A DNA stretch of 64,000 nucleotides from Acinetobacter phage nACB1. Made by a program: the position numbers and the translations under genes. This document shows positions 25,701 to 54,165 of the stretch, piece after piece (position 1 is the first letter of the stretch; each line of letters starts with the position of its first letter). The DNA is taken from sequence record OQ032511.1; one strand, 5' to 3'. The notes beneath the pieces are model-generated. The model had not been told where the DNA came from, did no database searches, and saw only the letters and a list, made by a program, of their open reading frames with translations.

Positions 25701-26714
25701 TATTCTTTAAACCAAGCATTCGATAAGATGCCTGAAGCACGTAACATGTTTGAGTCTATCTACACAGATGTTATGAATACTCTGTTTGGTGGTAAGGCTC
25801 GCTTACGTGGTGTACAAGGTGAACGTGCATGGCAAGAAGCTGTAAGTACTATGAAAGATATTATTGTTATTCGTAACGTTAAGACTCTTATTGGTAACAC
25901 TATCTCTAACGCTTTATTGTTATCTGCTCATGGTGTGAGCTTTACTGATATTGCTAAAGACACTGCTACATCTATTCGTGCAGGATTACAGTACCGTCGT
26001 GACATGGCTAACTTGTTATCTATTCGTCAGAAGCAGAAAGCAGGTGTAGGTGATTTCAATAAACTAGAGCAAGAAGCTTTACGTATTGAAGATTCAATGA
26101 GTCGTAACCCATTAGCTGACTTTATCAATGAAGGTATGATGCCTACTATTGTTGAAGACTTAGACCCATCTAATGACCACTACTCATACAAGTCTAAGTT
26201 ACAAGAGCGTATTGATGGTTTAACTACTGATGTACCTAAGTCTGTGAAGACTGCAGCTAAATGGTTAATGGTATCTCCTGATACTCCGTTGTACCAGTTC
26301 TTGAATAATGCTACTCAGTTCTCTGACTTTAGTTCTAAGTATGTGTTGTATAAACACTACACTACTAAAGCTAAAGAAAAGCTAGGACATGAAGAAGCTA
26401 TTCAGATTGCTCAGGATAACTTCATTAACTATGACATTCCTACTTCACGTGGTTTACAGTATCTGAATGATATGGGTGTGGTAATGTTTACTAAATATAA
26501 CTTACGTATTCAGAAAGCATTATTCCAATTGATGAAGAAGCGTCCTGCTTCTGTAATGGCTCAAGCCTTATTGATTGGTACTCTTACTAATATGGAAACT
26601 GCTATTGACCCTATTGTGTTTACACAGTTTGGTAATCCGCTACGTACTGGTGCATTTGGTTTACCAAGTGCTTTAGATGAACCTCTTCCTATTAAGATGC
26701 TTACTGGACTGTAA
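16716..26714 (+). CDS. virion-encapsidated RNA polymerase (N4 vRNAP-like)
   Basis: Single 3332-aa ORF. T7-like single-subunit RNAP motifs occur in order: GFESDGVTNGP (motif A, compare T7 HQDGSCSG), KRKGAKPIVTTSNYGAG (motif B, K-x8-YG) and TQNYHDANAS (motif C, HD). The Gly/Ala-rich N-terminal region is typical of ejected proteins. Confidence 0.9.
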   Translation: MADYKSLQVSDALSRITNQLKPQVTYGSLGSSVYGRNTNTPDAIAADQQAIQQGQQYYNSIYGKTGSDYVQDAGVALAKGVVSVPQAAAGIVDLLDAGAQFATGQDVQGGRFSKNLADVGVDFATTQDIMSGWFSEGTQRQMQELAALPGMSTEQSLGQNLNSLGSTLGYVADNPSIALNTIIQSLPSIAAGGVVGRGAAALGARGAAGAIGEGTIMSGQAQANMERNAEGYTTGQQALGALGIGVLGGLVGQAGNRIAATRGAADIDQVAAGVGSQAANQGFKSLTVGTATEAAEEAAQSALENVITNVSSGKDAIQGLNQDLVLGTLAGAGMGAAVNAKSSIGTAALEAVQNAANKQIERAKEKISREAPEQTDTPTEQFTDPSSPSYNPSAALVREAKKLTEATTPEEQLDVRNSFNYIMEEQEAYLGGLIETRDAVQNIDNLRQSIVNADAAVERFAESDPAKAEQIAAISANLKEQVAVAEQFIGNEQTLDAHIAEVETKVQEARDIHTRYDSLMQRATTNDETMDTQIFGAPQKFTPEQIEKAINDPKVPEASKPALRALADAVVAQNAVKNIDAVNQQITGKQYDSNYRSTPQYLAQFTRAIKQGNTAQQVNLMREIGAFEQSHVQKAEIVQQGLELASSGQPVQIIRNQDGSWAFNQGEWLSRTAAKKNGAITIASPKQIEAVTKTSEYMQAEAQAITATRNAMEQLDVLNNPNGSVVRPSNVATQSTPETQEVPTQQATDFQAAIDELNSLERDNYDYQPQRRVEDPRESLSQPSFDGAINAESQVPTGTQSTSGTMSSGDTSQVQTPTNTEGTTPVAKAERVASRSVSEDVATEVQTSTEAATQATNEETTEEVVTPEVKKEAEPQDINTVEKADKNPARTAERAKEPKKRNLVIDGFNQRDTVLNRNENFVKRFMNRSNIAPVVESITGKAPTPKQEQALKDFTNFANYFDSKLDIIGSKQEDFRFQDFNQFLLVDGKLPDNVKTAVSAAMYSWIAENGSKTLNTERDVAGLLLLNDIDTLPTTVFNAFTGIGDHQSVVTGSLGQKALEALGLKVVSDVDPARKQKLEQALGTLAAVALTQNGYLEHTAMSVAEFELHQAYAQNANEGSTFGDQTFKGGKTINFLVPKAGKKVDQVIKSAAETQGIVQSLFGVQRDIKLPSLEPVTSTPQSFNRMGSELPSYTKDMLEAAQSNGYKMSIPAMQFMDNVKQDDLLELFGFIKPNADGVSFDGMHKKFWKSQLASNEAVERAVAIIKEQRANLGDDSKEFFFEHTSWTNTRSGYDSAFNLQANKMHRAVAGMSAHVVEVGIEAPIKNGETTKFGEFLMAVAMGAEGASDVMGIQTVDKVSAETFLPKFQEYLAQDYVQAGIESMAAAIETKPTKQDMDNIKRVVTEFDMGPMSVRALQALAQMHIAERDGQRTFTSDIGFESDGVTNGPVITNVALNTADAQMLEAGGIFTSRAKSNVPTNKEQGNEDIYEQLGGVMQAEWTAYKKAVKGGALDSALGLDVIYSAFGKRKGAKPIVTTSNYGAGIASIKRANAREVLNAFYTGLESAGKKGDIGAAQDLINAVNKTIKYSNFKQKLSTPLAVAKGDVMEFLLTPEQEAALFFAADLQHGEAIKETLSKAMAGFNEVRDNLTEQAVTGFKIYELIRQNAINEALKNTDGVLVDGKGKRQEGLTADQMKAVLKSIERYTPSVVSGMGNLSSNKKKSSIPLMKQDTVWDGSAMSEQQFKFLGSWQQSGTKEFSVRSAIKRDAVSDPGVSGLALIIQSIDAMIAHTTIGKMPTQNYHDANASAVGQGKAMAKIQNEAFVDGVMHTHVNREFARALMNPLTLVLDNKAFYTANKDEINDAMKGIFMSQKVATAYERDLAKLTGMLKWVNVNQYGTQGGHFQMTNAKRKEILDEIAQLKKDYAKDAALAKRIDEIVESGSEPQTVEEHLRQNIIMTGKEVVPLLQAELKQFQGKEGQVGKFSQFYDSILDLVTKQMPSDLEINYFSDLEAPENVNGLKEAVDNNNPAWFTTGKDGKPQINILRSDAPIRAQVLVHELVHAITVDSISQVRKDPTAHAKAAESLAKLDALYEDIKAKVNADPNATDLQKYAVKNVEEFIATGFSYPEFVDYLDSQLAPKAARGKNRIVTALRSFVDSILGVLESFTGRKYSAKDATALEALIIDSTEFLGRAPTQTTGTQTSIFGAPQQARNTVDGYTAYEVFSTLPKHANPQFQAHLNQMMRQVADTIYSGLDQKLIDNNDGAWSIEKAWEEYTTAGNAETTETAVTAGFRMTEQEAFAVESIYAAMVHGLKDKSMTQVYAEMNKAYNSAKARLKPENFYQGDWATATRQDKADAQDMYDYFFKLGPTNKQHLARFISMALGSEQVNSMLGFAVKDTSTAPSNTFENIVEKANTLLDFVGGVLTNSNSAQNINNRVGLLAKELARIDMKNREHAVGRVEAQLEAIADYTDGVSKKLRERVVEFADKDAIANNRNTYVRLASNTTRLAAKGDLWTVLDTLKEANNIDNPNSTLGMMGEIINEAANNDSTKNHVEKMMRITKLNNQMKENIRHTTTKNVMSTFEDNGQYLTKDHKAALTTMLRSDVQVLSTTYSTKEIAQLYTDGKFLQNETAAVVNQLKALGGDQVMINRAKQLAKYMLTGNSSIGLAKNAQLIVSGFNSGEVVDLTDPRVDLVDKLATMYAIEYTDKGTRNRLGEVFKRELKNKTNGVDTSIKFHHELSKEARNKLFVDNATSVVKGFVPEITNPNKEVRIATNDTEARLYKEQYYREVKSMVKDKSDKTGATPRLFITDEANVQRLVSGAVEIVSTNRKGTGVNMDAKEFTYAVNSVRIPNSPLYNPMLDQDVYMVPNYNTQNEVVGFSYEMSGNNRDSLLERNNDFSELLGAYAATNFNKVTVPDQNNKVIDAAYQDYKDNFVNNPRAYITVGPGATNPALAETWAMLPEDTRRYIESKFGPDGMVIRNDVYLTMFGYRKYSLNQAFDKMPEARNMFESIYTDVMNTLFGGKARLRGVQGERAWQEAVSTMKDIIVIRNVKTLIGNTISNALLLSAHGVSFTDIAKDTATSIRAGLQYRRDMANLLSIRQKQKAGVGDFNKLEQEALRIEDSMSRNPLADFINEGMMPTIVEDLDPSNDHYSYKSKLQERIDGLTTDVPKSVKTAAKWLMVSPDTPLYQFLNNATQFSDFSSKYVLYKHYTTKAKEKLGHEEAIQIAQDNFINYDIPTSRGLQYLNDMGVVMFTKYNLRIQKALFQLMKKRPASVMAQALLIGTLTNMETAIDPIVFTQFGNPLRTGAFGLPSALDEPLPIKMLTGL

Positions 26715-38720: not shown

Positions 38721-39365
38721 CTAAGCTTCGCTAGTCCATCCAAGTGCCTTTGCGACAATTGGGAGTTCATTAGTAAACACTTCTTTAGCTTGTTGAGCAA
38801 TGAGCATGTGTTCCTTTTGTGTACCATTACCTGAACGTAGCGTGATGTAATGAATCCACTGACGTACGTTACCAGTCATATAAATCTTGGTTTCAGTATT
38901 GAGTGGTAAGACTTTACGCGCACATTCTTTAGCAATGCCTGCATCTAACATGTCGTTATATAAGTCTTGTGTTTCAGCAAACTGTTGTGCAATACGTTTT
39001 TCAAAGTCAGCAACAATCAACTTAGATTCTTCATCTAAGACTTCAAGAGAGTTTTGGCGATTCTTGTGATCCTGTAAACGTAGTTCAGGTACACGTGCAG
39101 GGTTCATAACTGCTGCATAACGTTGGCTAAATTCTTGAAAGAAAAAGCTACGATGACGAAGCATTTGAGCACCAATATCACGTGTAGTTGTGATCTCTAA
39201 GGTCATATGAGCATGCTCAAAGACAGACCAGTGTCCTTCACGTATACAGAAAGCTAGCAGGCCTGCTACATTATCATTGAATTGGTTTGCAGGGTTTGAC
39301 ACACGAGCAATAAAGCCCATGAGTTTTTCAGCATTAGAACTAATACTGATAAGGTTTACTGACAT
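38721..39365 (-). CDS. thyX: flavin-dependent thymidylate synthase
   Basis: ThyX signature RHRSFFFQEFSQRY (RHR-x7-S). 214 aa. Confidence 0.75.
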   Translation of the reverse strand: MSVNLISISSNAEKLMGFIARVSNPANQFNDNVAGLLAFCIREGHWSVFEHAHMTLEITTTRDIGAQMLRHRSFFFQEFSQRYAAVMNPARVPELRLQDHKNRQNSLEVLDEESKLIVADFEKRIAQQFAETQDLYNDMLDAGIAKECARKVLPLNTETKIYMTGNVRQWIHYITLRSGNGTQKEHMLIAQQAKEVFTNELPIVAKALGWTSEA

Positions 39366-39368
39366 AGT

Positions 39369-39617
39369 TTATTCCTGTTCAGGTTTATACATGTGGGTTA
39401 CGTAAGTTCGATACGCAACCTCATCAATAACGAAGATACCTTCTCCGCTATATTCAACTGGAGTTTCTAGTGGTAGTACTTTGTGAAGTACTCCATCGTC
39501 ATACTCTAAATAAATATCTTCTGTACCATTCTCAGTATCATCTTGAGGATAGATACTTAGGCCAGAGGACTGACTAACTAAGAAGTCAATCTTATCTAAT
39601 AGATCACGTAAGATCAT
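39369..39617 (-). CDS. hypothetical acidic protein (82 aa), first gene of the leftward block
   Basis: ORF with AAGGAA RBS. Confidence 0.5.
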   Translation of the reverse strand: MILRDLLDKIDFLVSQSSGLSIYPQDDTENGTEDIYLEYDDGVLHKVLPLETPVEYSGEGIFVIDEVAYRTYVTHMYKPEQE

Positions 39618-39656
39618 AATTATTCCTTGGTTTTAAAAGTCAGAAGATGGCAGGGA

Positions 39657-39685
39657 CTGCCAAACCAAACTACTCTGTGTATAAT
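39657..39685 (+). promoter_or_regulatory. sigma70-like promoter for the tail fiber gene
   Basis: -35-like cTGcCA at 39657..39662, a 17-nt spacer, then a perfect TATAAT at 39680..39685. A GAGGT RBS and the ATG at 39712 follow. The 5-bp-stem, GGA-loop hairpin ggcagggactgcc at 39650..39662 overlaps the -35. Confidence 0.35.
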
Positions 39686-39711
39686 CAGCTCCATAGCTAT
39701 GAGGTACATAT

Positions 39712-39987
39712 ATGTCAAACCTAACCCCTGAAGATGTAAACATCCAATTAACTGAAACTCGTAACGAGCTTCGGTTAGAAGACTTACGCCTATGGCAAGG
39801 ACTAGAAGATGAAAAGATTTCTCGTATTGCAGGTGATAATGCCAACACAGAATTAAACACATTAACTAATACAGAGCTTGCTGCTCAAGAGTCTCGTCTG
39901 TCTGTTGAAGTAGTTCAACGTGAAGAAGGTGATATTCGTAACATCACTTCATTGACAGCACTTGCTCAAGCATTAGCTGATAGGTGA
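39712..39987 (+). CDS. giant tail fiber, N-terminal fragment (cut off by a frameshift caused by a 55-bp tandem duplication)
   Basis: ATG with GAGGT RBS. The ORF ends ...SLTALAQALADR* inside the second copy of the duplication. The downstream ORF restarts with the same peptide TALAQALAD. Confidence 0.6.
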   Translation: MSNLTPEDVNIQLTETRNELRLEDLRLWQGLEDEKISRIAGDNANTELNTLTNTELAAQESRLSVEVVQREEGDIRNITSLTALAQALADR

Positions 39988-40036
39988 TATTCGTAACATC
40001 ACTTCATTGACAGCACTTGCTCAAGCATTAGCTGAT
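39927..40036 (+). repeat. Exact 55-bp tandem direct duplication (2 copies)
   Basis: 39927..39981 is identical to 39982..40036 (aggtgatattcgtaacatcacttcattgacagcacttgctcaagcattagctgat). 55 is not a multiple of 3, so the extra copy shifts the frame by +1 and creates a TGA. Confidence 0.85.
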
Positions 40037-43000
40037 TACCGCGTTAAGACTGATCTTGAAATTAATAATGAACGTATTGCGCGTCAACAGTTGGGCGTAG
40101 ATTTAAACACACGTGTTGATGATTTTGTTAGTACATTTGATCATAAATTTGTAATGGTCTATCAGACTATTCAAACATATCAAGATGAGACTAACGGTAA
40201 ACTCACACTGTTTGATGCACGTATTAGAAAATACGAAGAGATGCTTCAAGACATCACTACAGATTCTATTCAGATCACTATGGATAATGGTGAGATCAAT
40301 ATGGGTGCGTGGACTATTTTGTCTCAAGCACGTGAATGGGATTTAGAAATCTTAGCTAACTTCAAAGATTATAAAACTCAAACCGATAAAGATATTGATG
40401 AAGCTTTGAAAGATATTCAAGATAAGCTTCCTATTGAACAAGACATTATTGATAAAGCTATTGAAGCTTTGTCTGATGCTCAGATCATCAAAGACTTAGA
40501 TGCTAAGATTGATGGCAACATTGCTGACATTGATACTGTACATCAGCAGCTTATTGCTGAGGTAAACAATCGTCAAAATGAGATGATTGATTACAGTCAG
40601 ACTATTGCTAATGAAATGCAGAAGAATCAGAACGCATTAGTTACTATGGTTCAGACTGAAGCTGAAGCTCGTATTGATGCATTACAGCGTGAGTCTGCTA
40701 TCCGTCAACAAGAACTAGTTAACGAAGCTGCAGAGCGTAGTGCTGAGATTACAGAGCGTATTAAAGATATTGAAGCAGGTACTGGTGCAGATTTAACTGC
40801 AGTAAACCAACGTATTGATGAAGCTAATCTCTACATTGAATCTGTTAAAGATACTCTTGATACTGAGCGTGATGAACGCTTAGCAGATATTGCTACTCTT
40901 GATGATGGTTTAACTAAAGAGATTCAATCACGTAAAGATGGTGATACTTCAATCACTACAGCTTTAAATAACTATAAAGCTTCTAATGACGTAGCTATGG
41001 CTAACTTCCGTGATGAAGTAACTGTGGTTGCAGAATCGAATGCTGCTACTGTAACTAAAGTAAACGCATTAGATGCTTCACTTAAAACTACTAATACTAA
41101 GCTTGATCAGACTACTGCTACAGCAGGTACTGCATTAGATAAAGCTACCTTAGCTCTTACTGAGACAGGTGCTCTAGCGCAGCGTGTAACGCAGACAGAA
41201 GCTAATATTACACAGATCAATAAAGATGTAGCCACTAAAGCTAATGCTTCTACAGTGACTCTCCTAGAGTCTCGTGTGGAGACTATTGATGGTGAAGTAA
41301 AAGCATCTACTAAAGCTATTACTAAATTAACTTCTGACTTAACTACTGTTCAAGGTGAGCTTGATCAGAAAGTAGATGCGTCTGTCTTAGACTCATATTC
41401 AACTACAGTTCAAACCGACAAAGCTATTGCAGATCGCGTACAAGAGTATGATGCGAACTTATACATTGGTGGTCAGAATATTTGGTCTGTTGTAGATCAA
41501 CCTGTAACTAATGAAGCAGGTGTTGCTACTAAGACAGTAGTAAACCAAGGTGAAGAACACTATCGTATTATTATCAATTCTTTTGCATCTAACCGTATTG
41601 TTACACGTTTGGATAATGCACTTGTTGATCGTGGTTTTATTTTTAAAATTGGTGATGACTTCACTGTATCATTTGAAGTACGTGCAAGCCGTAATGCCCC
41701 TGCATCAGGTATCTATTACTACTTTGGTGGTAGTGGATCATTTACATCTAATTTACCTCTAACTACTGAGTGGGTACGTTATGTATTCCCATTGAAAGCA
41801 ACTGGTACTGGTGTAGGAAGTGCTACACAAATGTTTGGTACAAGTTTCTTTAGCACAAGTGGTTGGGCAGTAGATGACTGGGTTGAGTTCCGTCATGTAC
41901 AAATGCAACGTGGTAAGAAGGCTACTGAGTTCCAGAAAGCTACTGCTAAAGTGCAGCAAGGTATTACAACCAATGCTACAGCTATTACTGGTATCAAAGC
42001 TGAAGTAACAAACCATGAAGGTCGTATTACTTCTAACAGTAATAGCATCACTGCACTTACAAATACTGTAAGCCAAACTAATAAAGACTTAGCTACTAAA
42101 GCTGACTCTAAAGCTGTAGCTGATCTTAAATCTCAAGTAGATGTTATGGATGGTAAGATCACATCCAACTCACAATCTATTGTTATTCTTAATAATGATG
42201 TGACTACTATCAAAGGTGATATGCAGAACATGGCTACTACTAGTGCATTACAAGCACTGGATAGTAAGGTATCTGTAATTGATGGTAAGACTACGTCTAA
42301 CACTAATGCAATTACTTCTCTTCAAGGAAGTGTTAATACTATCAATAGTACTTTAGCTACTAAAGCTGATACCTCTGCAGTTAATGCATTGAGTACTACT
42401 GTTACTCAACAAGGTACACAGATCATTGCTAACAGTAATCAGCTTACTAACTTGAGTGCATCTATATCAATGTCTATGCCTGAAGCTAAAGTTACAGGTA
42501 CGTTGGATGGTATTAATTTATTCACACCTTATATTAACAACTCAAATATTAACTTAGTTGATGAAGCTACTGCAGTATCAGGTAAGGTAATACGTATTGG
42601 TGATAACTCAGGTAATGATAACATTGCAGGTATCAGTAATGCTTATGTAGCAATTGATCCTAATAAGTTATACCGAGTTAAGTATCGAGTTCGTCGTGTT
42701 ATTGGTGATGGTACTATTTACTTATCTGTCGTAACAACTAATGCAGATAAGACACGTAACGTAATGCATACCAACTCTGAGACTGCACTTACTGATATTA
42801 GTAATTCATTATATTACGTGGGCAATGCCGCACCTGCCTTAGGTACATGGTTAGAGGGTGAATACTTTTTTAAAGGTAAGTCTGCAGGTACTTCTGGTGG
42901 GACAGGTACAATAGCTTCTCCTCGTACATTCCCTGCTAAAGCTGCATATATCCGCTTAGGTATTCTACCTAACTTTACAGTTAAAGCAGGCCAACAAGAT

Positions 43001-46000
43001 ATTGACTATATTATCTTGGAAGATTATGACGCTATGTCTTTAGGTGATGCTAATGGTACAGCCATCACTAATCTTGGTACTCGTGTAACTAATAACGAAG
43101 GTGCTATTGATGTACATAGTTCTCAGTTAACTAACCTTACTGGACGTATTAGTACTGTTGAAGGTGGTTTAACAACTAAAGCTGATTCCTCTGCGTTGAG
43201 TGCTTTGGAAACTAAAGTTACTGCAGTTGATGGGAAGGTATCTACAAACACTAATGCCATTACTTCTTTACAAGGACGTGTTACATCTGTTGAAGGTACG
43301 TTAAGTACTAAAGCTGACGCTTCTGCATTAGCTAATTACTACACTAAAACTCAAACTGACAGTGCAGTAGCAGGTGGTATCAATGCTTACAATACTTCGT
43401 TGAGTGTAGGCGGGGATAACTTATGGAGTCTTGAAGGTTCTACTAATTCTAACGAATTTGGTGTTACTCAAAAAGTACTACAAGATTCTACGATTGATGC
43501 TCATAGATTTACTGTGTCTAGCTTTACAACGAATATTGCACGTATCCGAAACCAAGACATGATTCCTAATGGTTATGATGGCCAATTAGCTGTTGGTGAG
43601 CAATACACACTTACATTTAAGATTCGTGCTAGTCGAGCTGCTGCTGCAGATTACTATGCTTACGTTGGTGAGACAGGCTTTCCTAATGTAACAACACCTC
43701 TTAGCTTAACTGAAGATTGGCAGACTATTACATCTACATTTACTCTACGTGCTACAGTTTCTACAAGTATTCGTCAGATGTTCTGTGTGACTTTACGCAG
43801 TACAAATGGATGGGCTGTAAATGATTGGTATGATGTTAAAGAGATCATGCTACAGCGTGGTAATAAAGCTACTACTTACGTTAAAGCAGCTGCTAAAACC
43901 AAGCAGTTAATTGACGCTAATGCTTCAGCTATTACTAATACGCAAGCTTCAGTAACTAACCTAGATGGTAAGCTTACTACGCTGTCTACATCAGTAACTA
44001 CGCTTACAGGTCGTGTATCAACTGTTGAGAATGGTTTATCTACTAAAGCAGATGTATCAGCTTTCAATGCATTGGATGCGCGTGTTGTACAGCAAGGTAA
44101 AGACATTGAAACTGTGTCTGCAAGTGTTACTACTGTAAACACACGTATTGATAACTTAGCTATCAGCACTAATAACGTATTACTTAATTCTTACGGTGAA
44201 CGTACAAGTGCTGCACCTACTCAACGTGAATACTTAATGTATGAACGCAGTGTTGCACTTAAAGATTTCTATAATGAAAACTTAGATAAGTTCATTACAT
44301 TAAGTTTTGAAATCAAGGTTCCTGTAGCAGGCCCTGTTCAGGTATACACAAGCAATAACTCTGCACATCAATTCAGTACAGGTATTACTATTACAGAAGC
44401 TGATGTATGGCAGAAGTTTACTTTAAAGCTTGTTCCTAGACCACATCCTACAACTCCTGAGAATGTTGCAGGTTCTACTTTAGAGTTCTATGGTACATAT
44501 GGTACTGGTCGTATCCCTACTATCCGTAAAGCTATGATGGTAGCAGGTGGTGTTGCAGCTGCATGGGAACCATCTCCACGTGATACACAGGCGAGCTTTG
44601 AAGCACAGTCTTCTGCTATCAGTACTTTGGATTCACAGACTAAAGCATTAGATGGTCGTATCATAACTAACGCTAGTAATATCACTACATTACAAGGTCG
44701 TGTTACTACAGCGGAAGGTAAGATTACTTCTAATACAAATGCTATTTCTGGTTTGGAAACTAAGATTACTGAAACCAACGGTAAGATAGATGCACAAGCT
44801 AATAGTGTTACTCGCTTACAGTCTCGTGTGGATAACAATGCAGGTGCAGGTTTATCACAGGATTACTTATGTCTTGATTATGATAGTTGGTATAACCATA
44901 GTAATTTAACTAACTCAATTGCATTGGCTCCATACTTCAATCAAACACTGACAGATGGGCCTTTAGGTGCTAAAGGATTTGCTGCTACTGGTGGTACATT
45001 CTTTATGTACAACAAAACACCATTACCTACTAATAAGACTTATCGAGTTCAGTTCTGGGCTAAGCGTAGCAGTGATACAACTGGTACTGCGTACATTACT
45101 ATCTTACGTCTTAAACCAGGTGAAGCATTAAATGCTCAGTGGTATACATCTATAGCTTTATCAGCTGCAGAGTTACCACGTAATAATACTTGGACTTACA
45201 TTGATAAGATTGTGAACATTACAGGCGGTACTACAACGTATCCTCTTATGTATCTTGGTTTCAGTCTTAACAATGGAGCTTCTGCAGGTACTACAGCAGC
45301 ACAAGGCTTTAAAGTTACTGAGATACTTAACGTAGGTGATACTACTGGTTTAGCTACATCTGATGCATTAACTTCATTGACTACTCGCGTAACAACTGCT
45401 GAAGGTAAAATTGATACTCAAGCAGGTCAGATTACTAGCTTAAATACTACTGTTGCAGGTAAGGCAAATGCGTCTGCTGTAACTAGTCTTGAAGCACGTG
45501 TAACTACTGCAGAAGGTAACATTACTTCTCTTACTACAAGCAGTACTAACCTTACTAACCGTATGACTGCTGCCGAAGGTAAGATCACAACTAACACCAA
45601 TAACTTAACCACTATGACAAATAAGGTTACAGAGATTGATGGGAAAGTGACTGCACAAGCTACACAGATTAACAAGGTAGAATCTACGTTAGCAGGGCAA
45701 GCAATTGGTAGTACTAACTTACACCCTGCAACTATATCAGCTACTACTTGGGAGCCTTACAGCACATCTACAGTAGCTAAAGTTACTGGTGGTTTTAAGA
45801 CTGATTTAGTACGCGTAACTAAGACTGGTGGTTCTGTCGGTGGTGTGGCAACTGTAGCAGCACAACGTAAGATTAACGTACGAACTGGTACACCTATAAT
45901 TGTTACAGCTAAAGTACGTGGTGATGCTATACCTAATTATATTTATATGATGGGTGCATCTGGTACAGCTTCTAACGTTGCAGCTACCTCTATTGAGTTT

Positions 46001-47476
46001 AGTGAACCATTCGGTACTAGCTTCGTAACTATGACTGTTAAATTTAATGGTAATGGTTTTGGCTTCAGAACTAATGCATGGCTCATGATGTCTAACAATG
46101 GTGCTGCATCAGGTACTTGGTTTGAGTTTGCAGAACTTATGGTACAGGATGGAAATACTGCAACTGCATGGTCTGACTCTTACTTAGACGTACCTGAGAT
46201 TGATTTAACTGAGTATGCAAAAGCATCTGCATTAAGCTCATTAGATACTAAAGTAACTCAGATTGATGGACGTGTAACAAGCCAAGCTACTTCTATCACT
46301 CAGCTACAATCTAGTGTTGGTGACAATACATCTAAGCTTCAAGTACAAGGTGAAGTGATTGATGGATTGAAAGCTTCATACTTTGTTAAGACTGATGTGA
46401 ATGGTTTGGTAGCAGGGTTTGGTTTATATAATGATGGTACTAGTTCTGCTTTTGGTGTTAATGCTGATTACTTCTATATTGGTAAAGCATCAGGTGGTAA
46501 GAAACCATTCATTGTAACTACTTCACCTCAAACTATTGATGGTGTTACTTATCCCGTAGGTACATGGATTCATACTGCATTGATTGCTAATGCCACTATT
46601 GGTACAGCACATATTGCAGATGCTTCTATTACCAATGCTAAGATCAATAGTCTTGATGCAGCTAAGATTACTACTGGTACTCTTGATGCAGCACGTATTA
46701 AAGTTGGTGCAGCTACTCAGTATGAGATTGGATATGATCCAATTACTAAAGCTCGTACATTCGTAGCACAACCAGTTACTCCATACCGTGCAGGTGATAT
46801 TTGGAAGAATGGTACTACTACAGCTATCTGTACTGTTACTCGTTTGTCTGGTGCATACGTTGCAGCTGATTGGGGTAAGACTGGTGATGTAACTTCTGAG
46901 AATACTGCAGCTGATACATCTAAAGTTGGCGGTGTCGCTGCAGCTACTGTAAACCAAAATATTACTAATGCACAGACTGCGGCTACTAATGCTGCTACAT
47001 TGGCAGGTAATAAAGGTGAGGTTATCTATGGAACTGCACAGCCTGCTGCTGACAAGCGTTTAGCACAAAACCTATGGATTGATACCACTAGTAATGCTAA
47101 TACGCCTAAGCGTTGGAATGGTAGCGCATGGGTAGCGGTTACAGATAAGGCAGCTACTGATGCTAAGGCTGCAGCTGATGCAGCAGATGCTAAAGCGGTA
47201 GCAGCACAAGTAACAGCTAACTCAGCTAACAACCAAGTTAATGCTTGGAAGTTCACTGGTACAACTGAGATTGATGGTGGTAAGATTCGCGCTGATACAG
47301 TAACTGCTGTACAAATGAATGTAGCTGAGCTTAGTGCTATCACAGGTACACTTGGTACTTTAGTTACTTATAAAGACCCTGCTCAACCTAATAAGGCTCG
47401 TATGGTTATGCAAGGTAGTTTGATTACAGTGTACGATGATAATAATGTTTTACGTGTTCGTATGGGACTTTGGTAA
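40007..47476 (+). CDS. giant tail fiber / receptor-binding protein, main body (continues 39712..39987; about 2560 aa intact)
   Basis: 2489-aa ORF with no ATG or RBS of its own (first codon TTG). Long heptad/coiled-coil stretches (T.NT.AITSLQGRV..., LSTKADASAL) alternate with at least 6 beta-rich modules ending W(A/V).DW.E...MQ.G.KAT. The C-terminus YFYIGKASGG...IDGGKIRADTVTA...RVRMGLW resembles host-specificity / fiber C-terminal domains. Confidence 0.8.
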   Translation: MTALAQALADYRVKTDLEINNERIARQQLGVDLNTRVDDFVSTFDHKFVMVYQTIQTYQDETNGKLTLFDARIRKYEEMLQDITTDSIQITMDNGEINMGAWTILSQAREWDLEILANFKDYKTQTDKDIDEALKDIQDKLPIEQDIIDKAIEALSDAQIIKDLDAKIDGNIADIDTVHQQLIAEVNNRQNEMIDYSQTIANEMQKNQNALVTMVQTEAEARIDALQRESAIRQQELVNEAAERSAEITERIKDIEAGTGADLTAVNQRIDEANLYIESVKDTLDTERDERLADIATLDDGLTKEIQSRKDGDTSITTALNNYKASNDVAMANFRDEVTVVAESNAATVTKVNALDASLKTTNTKLDQTTATAGTALDKATLALTETGALAQRVTQTEANITQINKDVATKANASTVTLLESRVETIDGEVKASTKAITKLTSDLTTVQGELDQKVDASVLDSYSTTVQTDKAIADRVQEYDANLYIGGQNIWSVVDQPVTNEAGVATKTVVNQGEEHYRIIINSFASNRIVTRLDNALVDRGFIFKIGDDFTVSFEVRASRNAPASGIYYYFGGSGSFTSNLPLTTEWVRYVFPLKATGTGVGSATQMFGTSFFSTSGWAVDDWVEFRHVQMQRGKKATEFQKATAKVQQGITTNATAITGIKAEVTNHEGRITSNSNSITALTNTVSQTNKDLATKADSKAVADLKSQVDVMDGKITSNSQSIVILNNDVTTIKGDMQNMATTSALQALDSKVSVIDGKTTSNTNAITSLQGSVNTINSTLATKADTSAVNALSTTVTQQGTQIIANSNQLTNLSASISMSMPEAKVTGTLDGINLFTPYINNSNINLVDEATAVSGKVIRIGDNSGNDNIAGISNAYVAIDPNKLYRVKYRVRRVIGDGTIYLSVVTTNADKTRNVMHTNSETALTDISNSLYYVGNAAPALGTWLEGEYFFKGKSAGTSGGTGTIASPRTFPAKAAYIRLGILPNFTVKAGQQDIDYIILEDYDAMSLGDANGTAITNLGTRVTNNEGAIDVHSSQLTNLTGRISTVEGGLTTKADSSALSALETKVTAVDGKVSTNTNAITSLQGRVTSVEGTLSTKADASALANYYTKTQTDSAVAGGINAYNTSLSVGGDNLWSLEGSTNSNEFGVTQKVLQDSTIDAHRFTVSSFTTNIARIRNQDMIPNGYDGQLAVGEQYTLTFKIRASRAAAADYYAYVGETGFPNVTTPLSLTEDWQTITSTFTLRATVSTSIRQMFCVTLRSTNGWAVNDWYDVKEIMLQRGNKATTYVKAAAKTKQLIDANASAITNTQASVTNLDGKLTTLSTSVTTLTGRVSTVENGLSTKADVSAFNALDARVVQQGKDIETVSASVTTVNTRIDNLAISTNNVLLNSYGERTSAAPTQREYLMYERSVALKDFYNENLDKFITLSFEIKVPVAGPVQVYTSNNSAHQFSTGITITEADVWQKFTLKLVPRPHPTTPENVAGSTLEFYGTYGTGRIPTIRKAMMVAGGVAAAWEPSPRDTQASFEAQSSAISTLDSQTKALDGRIITNASNITTLQGRVTTAEGKITSNTNAISGLETKITETNGKIDAQANSVTRLQSRVDNNAGAGLSQDYLCLDYDSWYNHSNLTNSIALAPYFNQTLTDGPLGAKGFAATGGTFFMYNKTPLPTNKTYRVQFWAKRSSDTTGTAYITILRLKPGEALNAQWYTSIALSAAELPRNNTWTYIDKIVNITGGTTTYPLMYLGFSLNNGASAGTTAAQGFKVTEILNVGDTTGLATSDALTSLTTRVTTAEGKIDTQAGQITSLNTTVAGKANASAVTSLEARVTTAEGNITSLTTSSTNLTNRMTAAEGKITTNTNNLTTMTNKVTEIDGKVTAQATQINKVESTLAGQAIGSTNLHPATISATTWEPYSTSTVAKVTGGFKTDLVRVTKTGGSVGGVATVAAQRKINVRTGTPIIVTAKVRGDAIPNYIYMMGASGTASNVAATSIEFSEPFGTSFVTMTVKFNGNGFGFRTNAWLMMSNNGAASGTWFEFAELMVQDGNTATAWSDSYLDVPEIDLTEYAKASALSSLDTKVTQIDGRVTSQATSITQLQSSVGDNTSKLQVQGEVIDGLKASYFVKTDVNGLVAGFGLYNDGTSSAFGVNADYFYIGKASGGKKPFIVTTSPQTIDGVTYPVGTWIHTALIANATIGTAHIADASITNAKINSLDAAKITTGTLDAARIKVGAATQYEIGYDPITKARTFVAQPVTPYRAGDIWKNGTTTAICTVTRLSGAYVAADWGKTGDVTSENTAADTSKVGGVAAATVNQNITNAQTAATNAATLAGNKGEVIYGTAQPAADKRLAQNLWIDTTSNANTPKRWNGSAWVAVTDKAATDAKAAADAADAKAVAAQVTANSANNQVNAWKFTGTTEIDGGKIRADTVTAVQMNVAELSAITGTLGTLVTYKDPAQPNKARMVMQGSLITVYDDNNVLRVRMGLW

Positions 47477-47499
47477 GTCCCATACCTTAAGGAGTTTTT

Positions 47500-47802
47500 A
47501 TGCCACAAGGTTTACAAGTATTTAATGAGAATGGAGTTCTTATAAACGATACTAATGATAGATTTCCACGCATCATGGGTAATGTTGAAACTGTTGCGGG
47601 AGTAGCAGGAGAGCAGGCTATTAGCATACCTGCGAACACTCAACCTATATTTTTTATGGTAGGTCTAAATGCTAATTCTTATGACAGCCTACCTTATATT
47701 AGTATTACAAATACTTTACTTAAGTGGGATTATCGTCGTTATGAAATTGCTTGGGGTACTTCACCCTATGGAGCTGCAAAAATACATTGGGGGTACTACT
47801 AA
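47500..47802 (+). CDS. small fiber-associated protein (100 aa), paralogous module
   Basis: The N-terminus MPQGLQVFNENGVLINDT matches the start and an internal segment of the next gene. TAATG overlap with the next gene. Confidence 0.55.
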   Translation: MPQGLQVFNENGVLINDTNDRFPRIMGNVETVAGVAGEQAISIPANTQPIFFMVGLNANSYDSLPYISITNTLLKWDYRRYEIAWGTSPYGAAKIHWGYY

Positions 47803-48587
47803 TGCCATCAGGATTAGAAGCTTATTCAGATAGTGGAATCTTACAATTTGATTCTAACTATCCTCAGTACTCTGTGTCGAAAGTAATTACTAAACCTGTA
47901 AACAGCAATAACCCTGTAACCTATACGGCAGGGCCTTCGCATTTACTGGTAGGTGTTAATTTATCTACTGCTGTAAATGCTGCTAAAGGTTTGTGTACTA
48001 TCAATACAGGTACTGTTTATGAAGGTAATAATACTTTTAGAGTTTCTATGCAGTTGGATGTTTATACTTTTGAAAACATAGCTAAGTTTATTGTATTTGA
48101 GCCTTTTAACTTATTGAATGCTCAATCTCCTGGGTCTGGGGTAGGTTTAGAAGTTTTCGACGAGAACTCTAAATTAACCTATACGACCCAAGTTCCCAAC
48201 TTACGTGTTGTAGCTACACATGTTTTACCTGACCAAGTAAAAGCACAAGGTATGTTATATGGTACAGGAGCAGGTGTTATTAATGCTAATAACTATAAGT
48301 GGACTACTAACATATTCCCTGATGATATTAGTAATTATGGTATTGCATTTGCTCAACCTAGGCTAGGTAACAGGGTTGAGTATGATGGGTCAGAGGAAGT
48401 AATTACATTACATGACTCTGCTAAATTTAGTATCAATAGTTCTGGTTATCTTGAAGTATTATTTAGTGCTGCTGAAGGTTCAGCAACTTCTTATGGTGCT
48501 CCTTATAATGCTACAAACATTTGGGTATCTCATGGTGTACAGATTGCCTATGTTATTGATGTAAGGGCTATAAGGCATTTACTTTAA
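47802..48587 (+). CDS. fiber-associated protein (261 aa) made of two copies of the same module
   Basis: Starts MPSGLEAYSDSGILQFDS and has the internal GVGLEVFDENSKLTYTTQ. The track ORF begins upstream at 47751, but the ATG at 47802 is coupled to the previous stop. Confidence 0.55.
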   Translation: MPSGLEAYSDSGILQFDSNYPQYSVSKVITKPVNSNNPVTYTAGPSHLLVGVNLSTAVNAAKGLCTINTGTVYEGNNTFRVSMQLDVYTFENIAKFIVFEPFNLLNAQSPGSGVGLEVFDENSKLTYTTQVPNLRVVATHVLPDQVKAQGMLYGTGAGVINANNYKWTTNIFPDDISNYGIAFAQPRLGNRVEYDGSEEVITLHDSAKFSINSSGYLEVLFSAAEGSATSYGAPYNATNIWVSHGVQIAYVIDVRAIRHLL

Positions 48588-48598
48588 TTTAATTAACA

Positions 48599-48627
48599 AA
48601 GCCCCATAAAGGGGCTTTATTTTATAT
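48599..48627. terminator. Bidirectional rho-independent terminator
   Basis: Hairpin aagcccc-ataa-aggggctt followed by tattttat. A U-tract is also present on the complement. Confidence 0.6.
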
Positions 48628-48816
48628 TGCTACTGTTACTTCGTCTTTGGGTACTTCTACCAGTTTGATGTTATAACCATCTATATCAGAATAAGATAAG
48701 ACAAACTCACTAATACTAACATTTTTGTTAAATTCACGAGCTTCTTTAACGTTAACGAAATCATTAAGTAACTTGATGTGGTCTACTGGCATACCGCGTT
48801 GAACTGTGTCAGTCAT
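48622..48816 (-). CDS. hypothetical small protein (64 aa) on the opposite strand within the + block
   Basis: ORF with AAGGA 8 nt upstream. No TM helices. Could be spurious. Confidence 0.35.
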   Translation of the reverse strand: MTDTVQRGMPVDHIKLLNDFVNVKEAREFNKNVSISEFVLSYSDIDGYNIKLVEVPKDEVTVAI

Positions 48817-48887
48817 GGACTGTATCCTTTAAATAAATATAAGAGTCTGCAATAATACCTCATCTCTAATGATCAAGGATACCTAAC

Positions 48888-49475
48888 ATGGGTAAATTTA
48901 TTACTGCTGCTGAGATAGCAGCTAAAGCTAAAGAGTATGGTATTGAAGAAGCAGCTCTAAAGGCTGTTATGGAAGTTGAGTGTAAAGGTCATGGTTTTAA
49001 TAGTGATGGTACACCAGTTATATTATTTGAACGTCATAAGTTCTATCAAGGACTTATTGCTATTAAATGGATAACTAAAGCTAAAGAATGGTATAAAGCC
49101 TATCCTGATATTTGTAATCCTAACTGGGGAGGTTATGGCAAAGAATCTGCTCAACATGGAAGACTACAACGAGCAGCTGCTCTTAATCGTGATGTAGCTC
49201 TCGAATCAGCGTCTTGGGGTTTAGGACAAGTGTTAGGTAGTAATTGGAAATCACTTGGCTATACGAGCTTACAGGCGTTCATAAACGCTATGTATCAAGA
49301 CGAGGTATCACAACTTGACGCTATGTGCCGCTTCATTAAAGTGAATGGTTTAATCAAGCATATCCAAGCTAAAGATTGGGCAGCATTTGCATTCAATTAT
49401 AATGGGCCTAAGTATAAGGCTAATGACTATGATACTAAATTAGCTGCAGCTTATAAGAAGCATTCAGGAGAGTAA
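48888..49475 (+). CDS. endolysin, N-acetylmuramidase family
   Basis: 195 aa with EVECKGHGFNSDGTPVILFERHKFY and WGLGQVLGSNW segments characteristic of the phage muramidase family found in N4-like phages. No signal-arrest-release or TM segment. Confidence 0.7.
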   Translation: MGKFITAAEIAAKAKEYGIEEAALKAVMEVECKGHGFNSDGTPVILFERHKFYQGLIAIKWITKAKEWYKAYPDICNPNWGGYGKESAQHGRLQRAAALNRDVALESASWGLGQVLGSNWKSLGYTSLQAFINAMYQDEVSQLDAMCRFIKVNGLIKHIQAKDWAAFAFNYNGPKYKANDYDTKLAAAYKKHSGE

Positions 49476-49476
49476 T

Positions 49477-49872
49477 ATGTACTGGAAGGTTTATACAAAG
49501 ATTGCCCCTTTGTTGATGCCATTCTTCATATTAACTACTGTTGTCTTTGGTTCCATTGCTTTATACCGAGGGGAGATAATCCTAGGGTTACAAGCTCAGT
49601 TAATCAAAGACCAAACCAAAGAAGTTAAAGTGATTATTGAGCAGCAGCAAGCAAGTACTGAAATCAGTAAACAATACGAAGAGCGTAAAGCTCAGCGTGA
49701 ACAAGATAGGATAGTGAACAATGTTCAAATTGAAAAAGTTATCAGTGAGTCTGATAACAGCAGTGTATGTTTTGATGATGCTTGGTTGTACCAACTCAAT
49801 AATCAAATCATCTCCTTTAATAGTTCCAGCGAACCTGTCTCAACCATGCCCACAGATACAGGAGCTAACTGA
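49477..49872 (+). CDS. i-spanin (Rz-like)
   Basis: N-terminal TM helix LLMPFFILTTVVFGSIALY followed by a charged coiled-coil. Begins 2 nt after the endolysin stop. Confidence 0.6.
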   Translation: MYWKVYTKIAPLLMPFFILTTVVFGSIALYRGEIILGLQAQLIKDQTKEVKVIIEQQQASTEISKQYEERKAQREQDRIVNNVQIEKVISESDNSSVCFDDAWLYQLNNQIISFNSSSEPVSTMPTDTGAN

Positions 49873-50002
49873 TGGAAAAAATAGCACAGTTCTTAGATGG
49901 TCTAATGATCTTCTTCTGCAGTACAGCGACTGTATGGATAGGCATCAAAGCACTATTCGCATTGTTGATGACTACAATAGGAGGCTTTTAAATGCCAACT
50001 AA
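49721..50002 (+). CDS. o-spanin (Rz1-like lipoprotein), overlapped architecture
   Basis: Signal peptide with lipobox LMMLGC|TNS. Starts in the +1 frame inside the i-spanin gene and extends beyond it. Pro-rich mature part. Confidence 0.65.
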   Translation: MFKLKKLSVSLITAVYVLMMLGCTNSIIKSSPLIVPANLSQPCPQIQELTDGKNSTVLRWSNDLLLQYSDCMDRHQSTIRIVDDYNRRLLNAN

Positions 50003-50570
50003 TTTAAGTCAGTGGGAGCGTGAACGCTTTGTCTATGGTGATGCAGCAGGAGATGGTAAAGGAGACTTCTTACGCGTTCATGCTATTAAAGCAGAGCATG
50101 CAGACAATCTCTTATTCTCTTGGCTTAGTGGTGGAGCAAGTGAAGTACGTTTACCTGATGCACTTCCTATAAGTCGTGGTGGTACAGGTTCTGCTACTGT
50201 AGCAGGTACTATTCGTAACCTTGGGTACTTTGAAGATACTAACCATGTCTTACGACGTGGAACTAAAGTATTAACGTTAGCTGATACAGGTATCTTAGAC
50301 CGCTTTCAAAACTTACCTAATGCTACGTTTACTAAGCGTGCTACAGGTGAGTATGTATTGAAAGGTGTTGAACTAGACACTAAGTTGTTTGGTATGGTTT
50401 TCCCTATAACTAATCTAAACCAGTTACGTTATATTGCTACTACTGCTTTAGGTGCTGTAGGTGAGACTATTATCAAAGTCTTTGTAGCTAACAATGCTAC
50501 TAATCCTCCTAGTCCTGGAGCTGCTGTAGACTTACCTACAGGTGTCTACATAGACATAGAATGTAAATAA
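49992..50570 (+). CDS. short tail fiber-like protein
   Basis: 192 aa containing LPISRGGTGSATVAGTIRNLG, a motif recurrent at the N-termini of phage tail fibers and spikes. Confidence 0.5.
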   Translation: MPTNLSQWERERFVYGDAAGDGKGDFLRVHAIKAEHADNLLFSWLSGGASEVRLPDALPISRGGTGSATVAGTIRNLGYFEDTNHVLRRGTKVLTLADTGILDRFQNLPNATFTKRATGEYVLKGVELDTKLFGMVFPITNLNQLRYIATTALGAVGETIIKVFVANNATNPPSPGAAVDLPTGVYIDIECK

Positions 50571-50574
50571 AAAT

Positions 50575-50600
50575 AGCCCTCTTTTGAGGGCTTATTTTTT
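50575..50600. terminator. Bidirectional terminator at the convergence of the + lysis/fiber block and the - early block
   Basis: Hairpin agccctc-tttt-gagggct followed by tatttttt, preceded by aaataaaaat. Confidence 0.7.
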
Positions 50601-50658
50601 ATGGGATGTTACTGATCGCAAATACAATTGCTAAAAATACAAGTAGGTAAACCATAGT

Positions 50659-51333
50659 TTACTCCATCGCATTGATTAACCATTTAGACCAATCTTCAAA
50701 CTCATTCCAATTGGCTTTGAGTTCATCAACAGACATCCACTTGAAATTACAGAACTCAGCAGGGTCAAGATTCAGGCTAGATTCTTTATAACCTGCTTGA
50801 GCAAGTTTTAATAACAATGGGATACCTACATGACGACATGAAGTAGCATTAGTATATGACTGAATAATACGATTAGCTCGATATGTAAAGTCATCTATAC
50901 TACCTAATGCACCAAACTCACGTGGGTCAATACCAAGCTCTTCTTGAAGTTCTCGGATAGCACCTGCGTAAACTAAGGTAGCCAATGGAGGATAATCTTC
51001 ATCAGTATGTAATTTAACATCATACAAATCTTCTTGGCTTACATGTCCACCTATACCAATAGACCATTGTCCAAATAGACCTGCTTCTTTTCCTTTACGT
51101 TGGTAAGCTAAGTATTTACCTGCTTCATTCATGATCTGGAAGTAACCAAGAATTTGAGGAAATGCAAAGCCTACAGCATCAGCAGTACCTGCATGCTCTT
51201 GTTTACTATCCACAATATCACGAGGTAATAATGCATATGCTGTCTGATCAATATCATCAAAAGAAAATGGAATAACACCTAAGTCAGTGTTACCTAATTC
51301 TTTTCGATGGATAGCTATAACTAATTCGCTCAT
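50659..51333 (-). CDS. Nudix hydrolase
   Basis: Nudix box remnant GGHVSQEDL...AIRELQEELGI (RE-U-x-EE-x-G-U). Confidence 0.6.
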   Translation of the reverse strand: MSELVIAIHRKELGNTDLGVIPFSFDDIDQTAYALLPRDIVDSKQEHAGTADAVGFAFPQILGYFQIMNEAGKYLAYQRKGKEAGLFGQWSIGIGGHVSQEDLYDVKLHTDEDYPPLATLVYAGAIRELQEELGIDPREFGALGSIDDFTYRANRIIQSYTNATSCRHVGIPLLLKLAQAGYKESSLNLDPAEFCNFKWMSVDELKANWNEFEDWSKWLINAME

Positions 51334-51701
51334 TTCTTCGCTCGCTTTTTGTATAAAGACTTTCCAAAGATACGGACGTTATTTAAGTAGAAATCTACTT
51401 CATGTTTACGCCAAGCTTTTTTAAAGTCTTCAGTAGATGTTAAGGTGTGAATTTTATATTCACGTTGGGATGAACAGTCTTTATGTGTCCATGACATGAT
51501 GATGTGTGTGTCATTAACATTTACACCACGTTCAATAGTGTGGTTCTTAAATAAAGGTAAACAAGGTGGTATTTTTAGATCATCAATTGTTAATGCCTTT
51601 GGTTTAGGGTCTTTACGTACTAATAACGTAAGTAATCCTGCTAATAAAGCCATAGATAGCCCTATAAGAATCCCTACTAATAATTCAAGTGTCATTGTCA
51701 T
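51330..51701 (-). CDS. membrane protein (123 aa, N-terminal TM)
   Basis: MTMTLELLVGILIGLSMALLAGLLTLLV is a hydrophobic helix followed by a basic soluble domain. Confidence 0.5.
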   Translation of the reverse strand: MTMTLELLVGILIGLSMALLAGLLTLLVRKDPKPKALTIDDLKIPPCLPLFKNHTIERGVNVNDTHIIMSWTHKDCSSQREYKIHTLTSTEDFKKAWRKHEVDFYLNNVRIFGKSLYKKRAKK

Positions 51702-51761
51702 TCCTTAGCACGAACAGCAGCCAGTAAGCGTAAGCTTACGTTAGCTGCGGTGTGAGTGCGG

Positions 51762-52127
51762 TTAATATTTAATAATGAGTTCGTGGTTGATACTGTAAGA
51801 ATCACACATCATCTCAAGATAATGTTTGATGTGAGCTACAGCAACATTGGTAGGATGTTTGTGATACACAGCAGCTACAAGAGCTGACGTTTGAGAGTTC
51901 AGTTTAATGAACGCATGTAAGCCAATAGGCTCTATGAATACTTCTTGTGGTTTAGTTAAATCACGCCAAGTCTTACGTTCTACATCACCCTCTGCAAGAT
52001 CACGTACACATTCCCATACACGACCAATCTGATGTTCAAGTGTTGGTTTGATACCTGAGTTTACAGCATGAGCTAACATGCCCATGTTGTTAAGTAAGTT
52101 ACTTACTTTAATTACTTGGTTTTCCAT
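51762..52127 (-). CDS. hypothetical protein (121 aa)
   Basis: ORF. Confidence 0.5.
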   Translation of the reverse strand: MENQVIKVSNLLNNMGMLAHAVNSGIKPTLEHQIGRVWECVRDLAEGDVERKTWRDLTKPQEVFIEPIGLHAFIKLNSQTSALVAAVYHKHPTNVAVAHIKHYLEMMCDSYSINHELIIKY

Positions 52128-52452
52128 TGTGATCCTCTGCGATTATCTTAAGTAATTTAACTTGCGCTGCAATAGAAGCAGCTATCACAGAATCGTGCGA
52201 AGCAACGAGTTCAGTTTGCGTATAGTATTGTCCATACGCTTTTGCAGAAGCATGTACATACATACCAGTACGTACGACTTTAAGTTCAGTAACGTAAGGT
52301 GGTACAACTAACTTAGGTGGTTTACCTATTGCTTTGTCTAACAGCCAACTTAATAAAGTCCATAAGAGCTTTATCATAATTACTGCGTACACAACACCTA
52401 AGGTGAAGAAGAATCCAACGGAAGTAATCCATGCATATTCAGGAAAGATCAT
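52108..52452 (-). CDS. membrane protein (114 aa)
   Basis: N-terminal hydrophobic segments AWITSVGFFFTLGVVYAVIMIKLLWTLLSWLL. Confidence 0.5.
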   Translation of the reverse strand: MIFPEYAWITSVGFFFTLGVVYAVIMIKLLWTLLSWLLDKAIGKPPKLVVPPYVTELKVVRTGMYVHASAKAYGQYYTQTELVASHDSVIAASIAAQVKLLKIIAEDHNGKPSN

Positions 52453-53057
52453 GAGTGAAGTCCTAGTACTAATTTACCTCGTTCAATCAAGTCTGTGCAT
52501 TCACGAGGTATAATAATTTTCTTAACTGTTATACGAGGGTCTAACATTAAGGATAAGTAACATTGATTGAATGTCTCAATCATGTCAGGGTCTGCAGCAG
52601 CAGAAGTAGGTGACTCCCCTAATGGAATCCCTGGTTGAACTAACGCAACCACATCGTAGAATTTGTTGGTCAGGTCTATACATTCTTCAGTGTACTCTTG
52701 CATCCATTCTTGATCTGCTTCTGTTGGTTCCTTAGGGAATGACCACATAGCATAACCAATAAGGTCTAGCGGAGTACGATCAGAGAATATATTCATAATG
52801 TCTCTGGTCATATGTTGAGGAAATACACGTTTGTTAATATCTACAAGTTTCTGATCAAACAAGTCAAGTAAACACTCTTGTATATGCTTTCGCGTGTGCC
52901 AAGGATAGTCTTGTTTAGCTGATGAGTAACCTATTGAGTGTTGCATCACAGAGATGCCAATAGGCATATACTCACCGCGTAAAGTGCAAGCAAGTGTCTC
53001 AGCTAAAGTGGATTTACCTACACGGTGCGCACCTACTAAACCATGTAGATTAATCAT
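52449..53057 (-). CDS. P-loop nucleotide (dNMP-type) kinase-like protein
   Basis: N-terminal Walker A LVGAHRVGKSTLAETLA at residues 7-23, as in small nucleotide kinases. 202 aa. Confidence 0.5.
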   Translation of the reverse strand: MINLHGLVGAHRVGKSTLAETLACTLRGEYMPIGISVMQHSIGYSSAKQDYPWHTRKHIQECLLDLFDQKLVDINKRVFPQHMTRDIMNIFSDRTPLDLIGYAMWSFPKEPTEADQEWMQEYTEECIDLTNKFYDVVALVQPGIPLGESPTSAAADPDMIETFNQCYLSLMLDPRITVKKIIIPRECTDLIERGKLVLGLHS

Positions 53058-53365
53058 AGGATACCCTTCTTCTCTAAGAATGTAGTTGCCACAATGTTAG
53101 GCTGCATTAAGTAGTCAGTAACATCAATGTTTGGGTCTTCAGCTATACGAGCTTCTACACACTGACCAATGGCACGACCTAACATAAACAATGTCATTGA
53201 GTCATCTTCGGTGTGCCCTCCTACATACATTTTACTGTCTGTAACAGTAATAAGAATTGAGTTGTCTGCTTCAAGAATACACTTGATCATACCTACTATT
53301 TCATTACGCTTATTGATTACGTTGCGAAGTAATCCAACTGTTTTAGTGATCATAACGATCTCCAT
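53054..53365 (-). CDS. hypothetical protein (103 aa)
   Basis: ORF. The terminator-like hairpin aaggagcctaagctcctt lies just upstream at 53369..53388. Confidence 0.5.
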   Translation of the reverse strand: MEIVMITKTVGLLRNVINKRNEIVGMIKCILEADNSILITVTDSKMYVGGHTEDDSMTLFMLGRAIGQCVEARIAEDPNIDVTDYLMQPNIVATTFLEKKGIL

Positions 53366-53391
53366 AATAAAAGGAGCCTAAGCTCCTTGGT

Positions 53392-53697: not shown

Positions 53698-53825
53698 AGA
53701 ACACTCCCTAACTAGACTAAGGTGTATTCTATGGAAGTTTGTCACGCAAATCCAACCTATATAGTATGTAATGAAACTATATGATATTATCAAGCCTTCT
53801 AAAAACCCTATATAGGATATTTAAT

Positions 53826-54149: not shown

Positions 54150-54165
54150 TAGTACTCAATAAGAT

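Follow-up and report, generated by a model that had tools for sequence, protein, structure and literature searches.

The deposited genome of Acinetobacter phage nACB1 contains an exact 55-bp tandem duplication that splits the gene of a giant tail fiber-like protein into two reading frames, and on the evidence given below we think this duplication is probably a finishing artifact of the deposited sequence, not a feature of the phage. Our analysis covered positions 1 to 64000 of the record (GenBank OQ032511), a stretch of 64 kb that we refer to as the window. If the artifact reading is correct, the real gene would be a single open reading frame of 2569 codons, and the two coding sequences that now represent it would be the product of the way in which a terminally redundant genome was closed and reopened after assembly.

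An exact tandem duplication in a tail protein gene

The two copies of the 55-bp unit (Table 1) agree base for base on direct comparison, and TRF reports a period of 55, 2.0 copies, 100% matches, and a score of 220 at this site. Identity at period 55 starts exactly at 39927, stops exactly at 40036, and so spans exactly 110 bp with no extension in either direction, and the flanks (GAAGA/AGGTG...CTGAT/TACCG, with slashes marking the outer boundaries) share no base at either boundary, which means that junction microhomology is absent. A search of the window for further matches to the 55-mer, allowing up to 3 mismatches, returned nothing outside the tandem pair, and none of 100 shuffled sequences used as a control gave two matches. 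The pair is also the sole exact tandem duplication with a period of 15 to 1200 bp within the 64 kb. These results bear out the first-pass annotation of this DNA, which had described an exact 55-bp duplication here; as for its further suggestion that the event was very recent, two copies derived from the same reads would explain the 55/55 identity equally well. We also considered whether the unit might carry a promoter, as it contains the motif TTGACA, and rejected this idea because a scan of 39900..40100 detected neither a -10 element to go with it nor any promoter-like site.

Table 1. Coordinates of the tandem copies and of the reading frames that they affect in the nACB1 window
Feature	Coordinates	Strand	Basis
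ORF36, 91 aa, ATG start, "tail protein," N-terminal fragment of the giant tail protein	39712..39987	+	Same coordinates in Table S1 of PMC10057805
Copy 1 of the 55-bp unit, AGGTGATATTCGTAACATCACTTCATTGACAGCACTTGCTCAAGCATTAGCTGAT	39927..39981	+	TRF, direct comparison
Copy 2 of the 55-bp unit, identical to copy 1	39982..40036	+	TRF, direct comparison
ORF37, 2489 aa, TTG start, "tail protein," remainder of the giant tail protein	40007..47476	+	Table S1 of PMC10057805; PHROG and PDB matches
Whole giant tail protein gene	39712..47476	+	Single ORF of 2569 aa once one 55-bp copy is deleted; collinear with the tail protein of XC38 (2479 aa)

The consequences for translation are direct. In the frame of the ATG at 39712, which has a GAGG RBS 7 nt upstream, copy 1 codes for ...GDIRNITSLTALAQALAD, while copy 2 reads AGG TGA (Arg-stop); the stop codon of ORF36 is this TGA, at 39985-39987 inside copy 2, and the C-terminal peptide of the two-copy version is NITSLTALAQALADR, ending in R before the stop. 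Read in the +1 frame, copy 2 yields the peptide of copy 1 a second time and then runs on into the large ORF. The frame of ORF37 is open from 39977, overlapping that of ORF36 at 39977..39987; no start codon occurs in it before the TTG at 40007, and it ends at 47476. The 18 nt before this TTG are ATTCGTAACATCACTTCA, and by inspection they lack a suitably spaced Shine-Dalgarno motif, as does the sequence before the earliest in-frame ATG, at 40154. When one copy is removed, the sequence reads ...TSLTALAQALAD/YRVKTD... across the junction (marked by the slash). The first-pass claims that the repeat frameshifts the gene, that deletion of one copy fuses the 91-aa ORF in frame to the 2489-aa ORF, and that the large ORF lacks an ATG or RBS of its own were all confirmed.

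Overlapping frames in a tail gene could in principle mean that the two-ORF layout is itself functional, whether by a programmed +1 frameshift, by termination-reinitiation, or by gain and loss of the 55-bp unit as a reversible phase-variation switch, but we judge this to be very improbable. A +1 shift within the overlap would indeed give a full-length protein with an insertion of 18 to 19 aa, and tandem repeats are able in principle to expand and collapse. Against recoding, no codon pair in the overlap GCU GAU AGG UGA, as read from the sequence, would allow +1 re-pairing by a P-site tRNA, the downstream RNA folds no better than shuffled sequence (z = -1.0), and no Rfam match was found. Against a switch, a long unit that is present just twice, and in a single genome, does not make a hypermutable tract, and against a functional layout of either kind, none of the relatives described below has a split gene or more than one copy of the unit, so that nothing about the arrangement is conserved. 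We rejected a programmed frameshift because the site lacks a slippery sequence, significant structure, and an Rfam match and because all relatives have a single ORF.

Identity of the gene and its relatives

The nACB1 genome is that of an N4-like phage (Schitoviridae) encoding a 3332-aa virion RNA polymerase (vRNAP), and it is collinear with that of Acinetobacter phage VB_ApiP_XC38. Its vRNAP gene is 9999 bp long and 67.2% identical to that of XC38, in agreement with the 9999 bp and 67% given in the published description (PMC10057805). Matches to the PHROG "tail protein" families 5911 (E value 1.2e-195) and 2589 (E value 8e-171) identify the gene affected by the repeat, and PDB searches recovered 7z4b, a "putative tail tip fiber protein" (E value 5e-16), the J-type central fiber 9ze4, and the P22 gp26 needle; no Pfam family scored above the cut-off. 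The first-pass name, a giant tail fiber, is reasonable given the PHROG tail protein families and the PDB tail tip fiber matches, and "giant tail fiber-like protein" seems to us a fair label, with a putative role in receptor binding.

The protein is modular. When 39712..47476 of the window was compared with L001 8668..16107 and L002 8552..12598, the N-terminal ~530 aa and the C-terminal ~120 to 160 aa proved to be conserved in nACB1, XC38, and At2, with a middle region that varies widely in length (full lengths of 2569, 2479, and 1348 aa, respectively) and consists of repeated coiled-coil and globular units. Among the metagenomic homologs, many are just 590 to 770 aa long.

The N-terminal region, in which the repeat lies, is where the comparison with relatives is most informative. 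After repair, the 2569-aa protein can be aligned from its first residue to both the XC38 tail protein (2479 aa) and the At2 homolog, with 56% identity to XC38 over the first 528 aa, and the ORF36 fragment taken by itself aligns with the N termini of the same two proteins (QFR59721 and XLQ30925). The protein alignment is gapless at the junction (...EEGDIRNITSLTALAQALADYRVKTDLE versus ...EEGDLRNIKSLTELAKALSDYRIKTDLE), and in the DNA alignment one copy faces a gap of exactly 55 columns in both XC38 and At2. Among GenBank phages, tblastn matched only XC38, At2, and Presley, each as one piece, and a search of 5.8 billion proteins added 16 metagenomic homologs with 32 to 72% identity (72% for the best). 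All 19 homologs, comprising the three Acinetobacter N4-like isolates and the 16 metagenomic proteins, are single-copy and collinear across the junction, with conservation of the N-terminal 90 aa, and none of the 19 shows copy number variation or a split gene. Across the ~35 genes that nACB1 shares with XC38, the 55-bp site is the only break in a reading frame.

The uniform single copy in all 19 homologs led us to reject assignment of the repeat to the contingency locus (phase variation) class. It also leaves unsupported the proposal in the first-pass annotation that duplication and loss of the unit act as an on/off switch for a receptor-binding fiber, given that relatives vary neither in copy number nor in the integrity of the gene and that the site has no slippery sequence or significant RNA structure. 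A variant of this proposal takes the duplication to be real and supposes that one-copy and two-copy genomes coexisted in the lysate, with gain and loss through the phage's own annealing protein/exonuclease recombination toggling the giant tail protein; we give this next to no credence, though if true it would mean that an N4-like phage switches an adsorption organelle on and off by duplication.

Assembly history of the deposited genome

The published account of nACB1 (PMC10057805) describes a plaque-purified isolate that forms plaques and has a genome of 80,310 bp with a 973-bp DTR. MiSeq 2x300 reads were assembled with the Geneious de novo assembler into a single contig at 80x, the reads were mapped back onto it, after which the genome was "reoriented" to match either the closest reference or the PhageTerm terminus; the start of our window corresponds to the start of the 944-bp DTR of XC38. 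Table S1 of that paper lists ORF36 at 39,712-39,987 and ORF37 at 40,007-47,476, both as "tail protein" and both matching the same XC38 protein, and the ORFs of the window coincide with that table also at 2,033-3,670, 4,592-6,796, and 16,716-26,714. The authors state that they inspected ORFs manually and deposited two CDSs nonetheless, and the paper makes no mention of a duplication, frameshift, truncation, or Sanger validation.

Other sources describe the tools and the errors that can accompany them. PhageTerm expects a contig with one collapsed DTR copy, advises that contig ends be corrected beforehand, and outputs a genome "reorganized according to termini positions" (PMC5557969). In the Geneious assembler, circularizing contigs with matching ends is an option and not a default described for nACB1 (PMC8852317). 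One phage contig has been reported with 55-bp overlapping ends, which were trimmed before the contig was reopened (PMC8483715), and internal repeats of ~79 bp in short-read phage assemblies were found by Sanger sequencing to be artifacts (PMC10438801). For nACB1 itself, exact-pattern searches in IMG/VR, metagenome contigs, and GTDB genomes gave no match elsewhere, nor did exact-protein look-ups in the protein collection.

Taken together, these practices suggest how the repeat may have arisen. Short reads from a phage with a 973-bp DTR would assemble as a pseudocircular contig that is opened at an arbitrary point, in this case inside the giant tail protein gene, and the resulting linear contig would carry the same 55 bp at both ends. 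Reopening at the PhageTerm terminus, either by hand or via PhageTerm's reorganized output, would then have joined the old end to the old start, and if the redundancy was left untrimmed at the join, the shared segment would stand twice in tandem at 39927..40036. In general form, a contig K+X+K that is reopened inside X without trimming becomes X2+K+K+X1, with an exact two-copy repeat at an arbitrary place. We infer that the raw contig ended at 39981/39982 with a 55-bp end overlap, and that boundary would be the join of the old contig end to the old contig start.

The published genome was reoriented after assembly, and we favor an artifact over the other readings that the first-pass annotation had offered beside it, namely, a pseudogene, truncated products, or a mixed population. 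Several properties of the repeat fit this origin: there are exactly 2.0 copies, 100% identical, of a unit shorter than a 300-nt read; the junction has zero microhomology; the insertion disrupts the frame of a structural gene that is conserved, in a phage that nonetheless makes plaques; it makes the only frame break among the ~35 genes shared with XC38; the relatives are all single-copy, with an alignment gap of exactly one unit; the large ORF is left with no translation start signals; and both untrimmed overlaps and artifactual repeats are documented in the cases cited above. We set aside as irrelevant the coincidence that 55 is the default largest SPAdes k-mer, the assembler having been Geneious, and the untrimmed-overlap mechanism is unaffected by this.

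The alternative that the duplication is real, recent, and fixed or in the majority in the sequenced lysate, so that the giant tail protein gene is truly split, is in our judgment unlikely. Under such a scenario the virions would have no full-length protein, or would have very little of the 2489-aa product through inefficient reinitiation at TTG 40007, and the protein would be dispensable on the laboratory host, like the side tail fibers of laboratory lambda. What was deposited is a consensus from an 80x assembly of a plaque-purified isolate, and if most virions did carry a duplication, the consensus at that depth would look no different, which counts against an artifact, as does the authors' stated manual inspection of ORFs before two CDSs were deposited. 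The remainder of the genome is clean, the 2489 downstream codons remain free of stops, as one would expect if the lesion were very young, and a second tail fiber-like gene, ORF14 ("lytic tail fiber," 14712..16643), could provide adsorption. On the other side, duplications by slipped-strand events or illegitimate recombination usually have microhomology at the junction, and its absence here makes them less likely rather than impossible. A real duplication would also have put an out-of-frame unit into a gene whose N terminus is conserved in all 19 homologs and left the large ORF with no RBS or good start codon. The phage moreover encodes a single-stranded DNA-annealing protein and an exonuclease (ORF27 and ORF29), which would be expected to collapse a 55-bp repeat quickly, and a harmful two-copy allele should therefore not dominate the population. 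The documented reorientation step provides a simpler origin.

The sister genome nACB2 (OQ032512), which came from the same laboratory and workflow, contains no exact tandem duplication and no end overlap. The freedom of a companion assembly from any joining artifact may be counted for a real duplication and against an artifact, but on balance we treat it as neutral. In the same genome, three consecutive CDSs at 23260..25730 are all named "tail sheath." We considered whether these were frameshifted pieces of one gene and rejected this because SH-Ab 15599 also has three genes there; in that phage the same stretch holds one tail sheath gene and two hypothetical genes, and the nACB2 annotation seems to reflect loose naming rather than gene breakage.

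Other regions of the window

Upstream of the giant tail gene, a DNA block at 39630..39690 is conserved in nACB1, XC38, and At2. It contains an inverted repeat, GGCAG-GGA-CTGCC, at 39649..39661 (5-bp stem, 3-nt loop), followed by an invariant TATAAT, and a scan identified a sigma-70-like site, CTGCCA-17-TATAAT, at 39657..39685. The XC38 annotation and two metagenomic annotations start the tail protein at an ATG within this block (MAGTAKP...), and we considered whether the corresponding ATG in nACB1, at 39647, could be the start of the tail gene and its displacement a second lesion. This was rejected: the ATG is out of frame in nACB1 and is replaced by AGG in At2, and what is conserved is the DNA. 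Those two observations suggest that the block most likely serves as a promoter or regulatory element and that the annotated start of the XC38 tail protein probably lies 22 codons too far upstream.

Farther along the window, on the minus strand, the DNA polymerase gene (54174..57641) is split relative to the single 875-aa gene of XC38. Residues 1 to 627 of the XC38 polymerase correspond to 57533..55653 and residues 629 to 832 to 54806..54195, in the same frame, and the ~850 bp between the two parts carry a 192-aa ORF (54934..55512) annotated as a homing endonuclease in the nACB1 paper. A scan of 39000..57800 gave no hit to a group I or group II intron family at or above the Rfam gathering score.

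Implications and comparison with known systems

This finding matters chiefly for curation. In GenBank OQ032511, 55 bases are probably spurious, and ORF36 and ORF37 probably need to be merged into one 2569-aa CDS; as the record stands, those bases turn one gene into two CDSs, and the TTG start of ORF37 is implausible. The two CDSs would find their way into protein databases and into catalogs of host range and receptor-binding proteins, where the gene would appear as a "truncated" fiber, and flagging the repeat guards against reading pseudogenization, recoding, or phase variation into it. Should the duplication instead prove real, nACB1 would be a fresh isolate of an N4-like phage that can do without its largest tail protein, an example of modest yet practical value.

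The natural standard of comparison is the set of homologous genes in related phages. The tail proteins of XC38 (QFR59721, 2479 aa), At2 (XLQ30925, 1348 aa), and Presley are encoded at the same genomic position as that of nACB1, between the thymidylate synthase/RNR block and the lysis genes, and share its C-terminal domain. Their genes are uninterrupted single ORFs, whereas the 55-bp insertion occurs in nACB1 only.

Two well-known arrangements in lambda invite comparison. The programmed frameshifts of phage tail genes such as lambda G/GT likewise involve two overlapping ORFs in a tail gene, but they are -1 shifts on conserved slippery heptamers and are themselves conserved across relatives, whereas nACB1 would need a +1 shift, has no slippery site, and shares nothing of the arrangement with its relatives. 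If the nACB1 duplication were real, the nearer likeness would be to stf of lambda PaPa, an accessory fiber gene split by a frameshift into two ORFs in a viable, propagated phage whose relatives keep the gene intact; Hendrix and Duda reportedly described this strain in 1992 as carrying the stf frameshift and lacking side tail fibers. The stf lesion is a single-base deletion and was confirmed experimentally, whereas that of nACB1 is an exact 55-bp tandem duplication known from one deposited assembly alone.

The closest known thing to the nACB1 repeat is an ordinary finishing error, and the split that it causes is visible, though unexplained, in the published table. An untrimmed contig end overlap in a rotated phage genome is likewise exact, strictly tandem, present in two copies, and shorter than a read, and it likewise falls at an arbitrary position in a terminal-repeat genome that was reoriented after assembly. 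The nACB1 genome differs in having been assembled with the overlap-based Geneious assembler, and the length of the overlap accordingly carries no k-mer signature.
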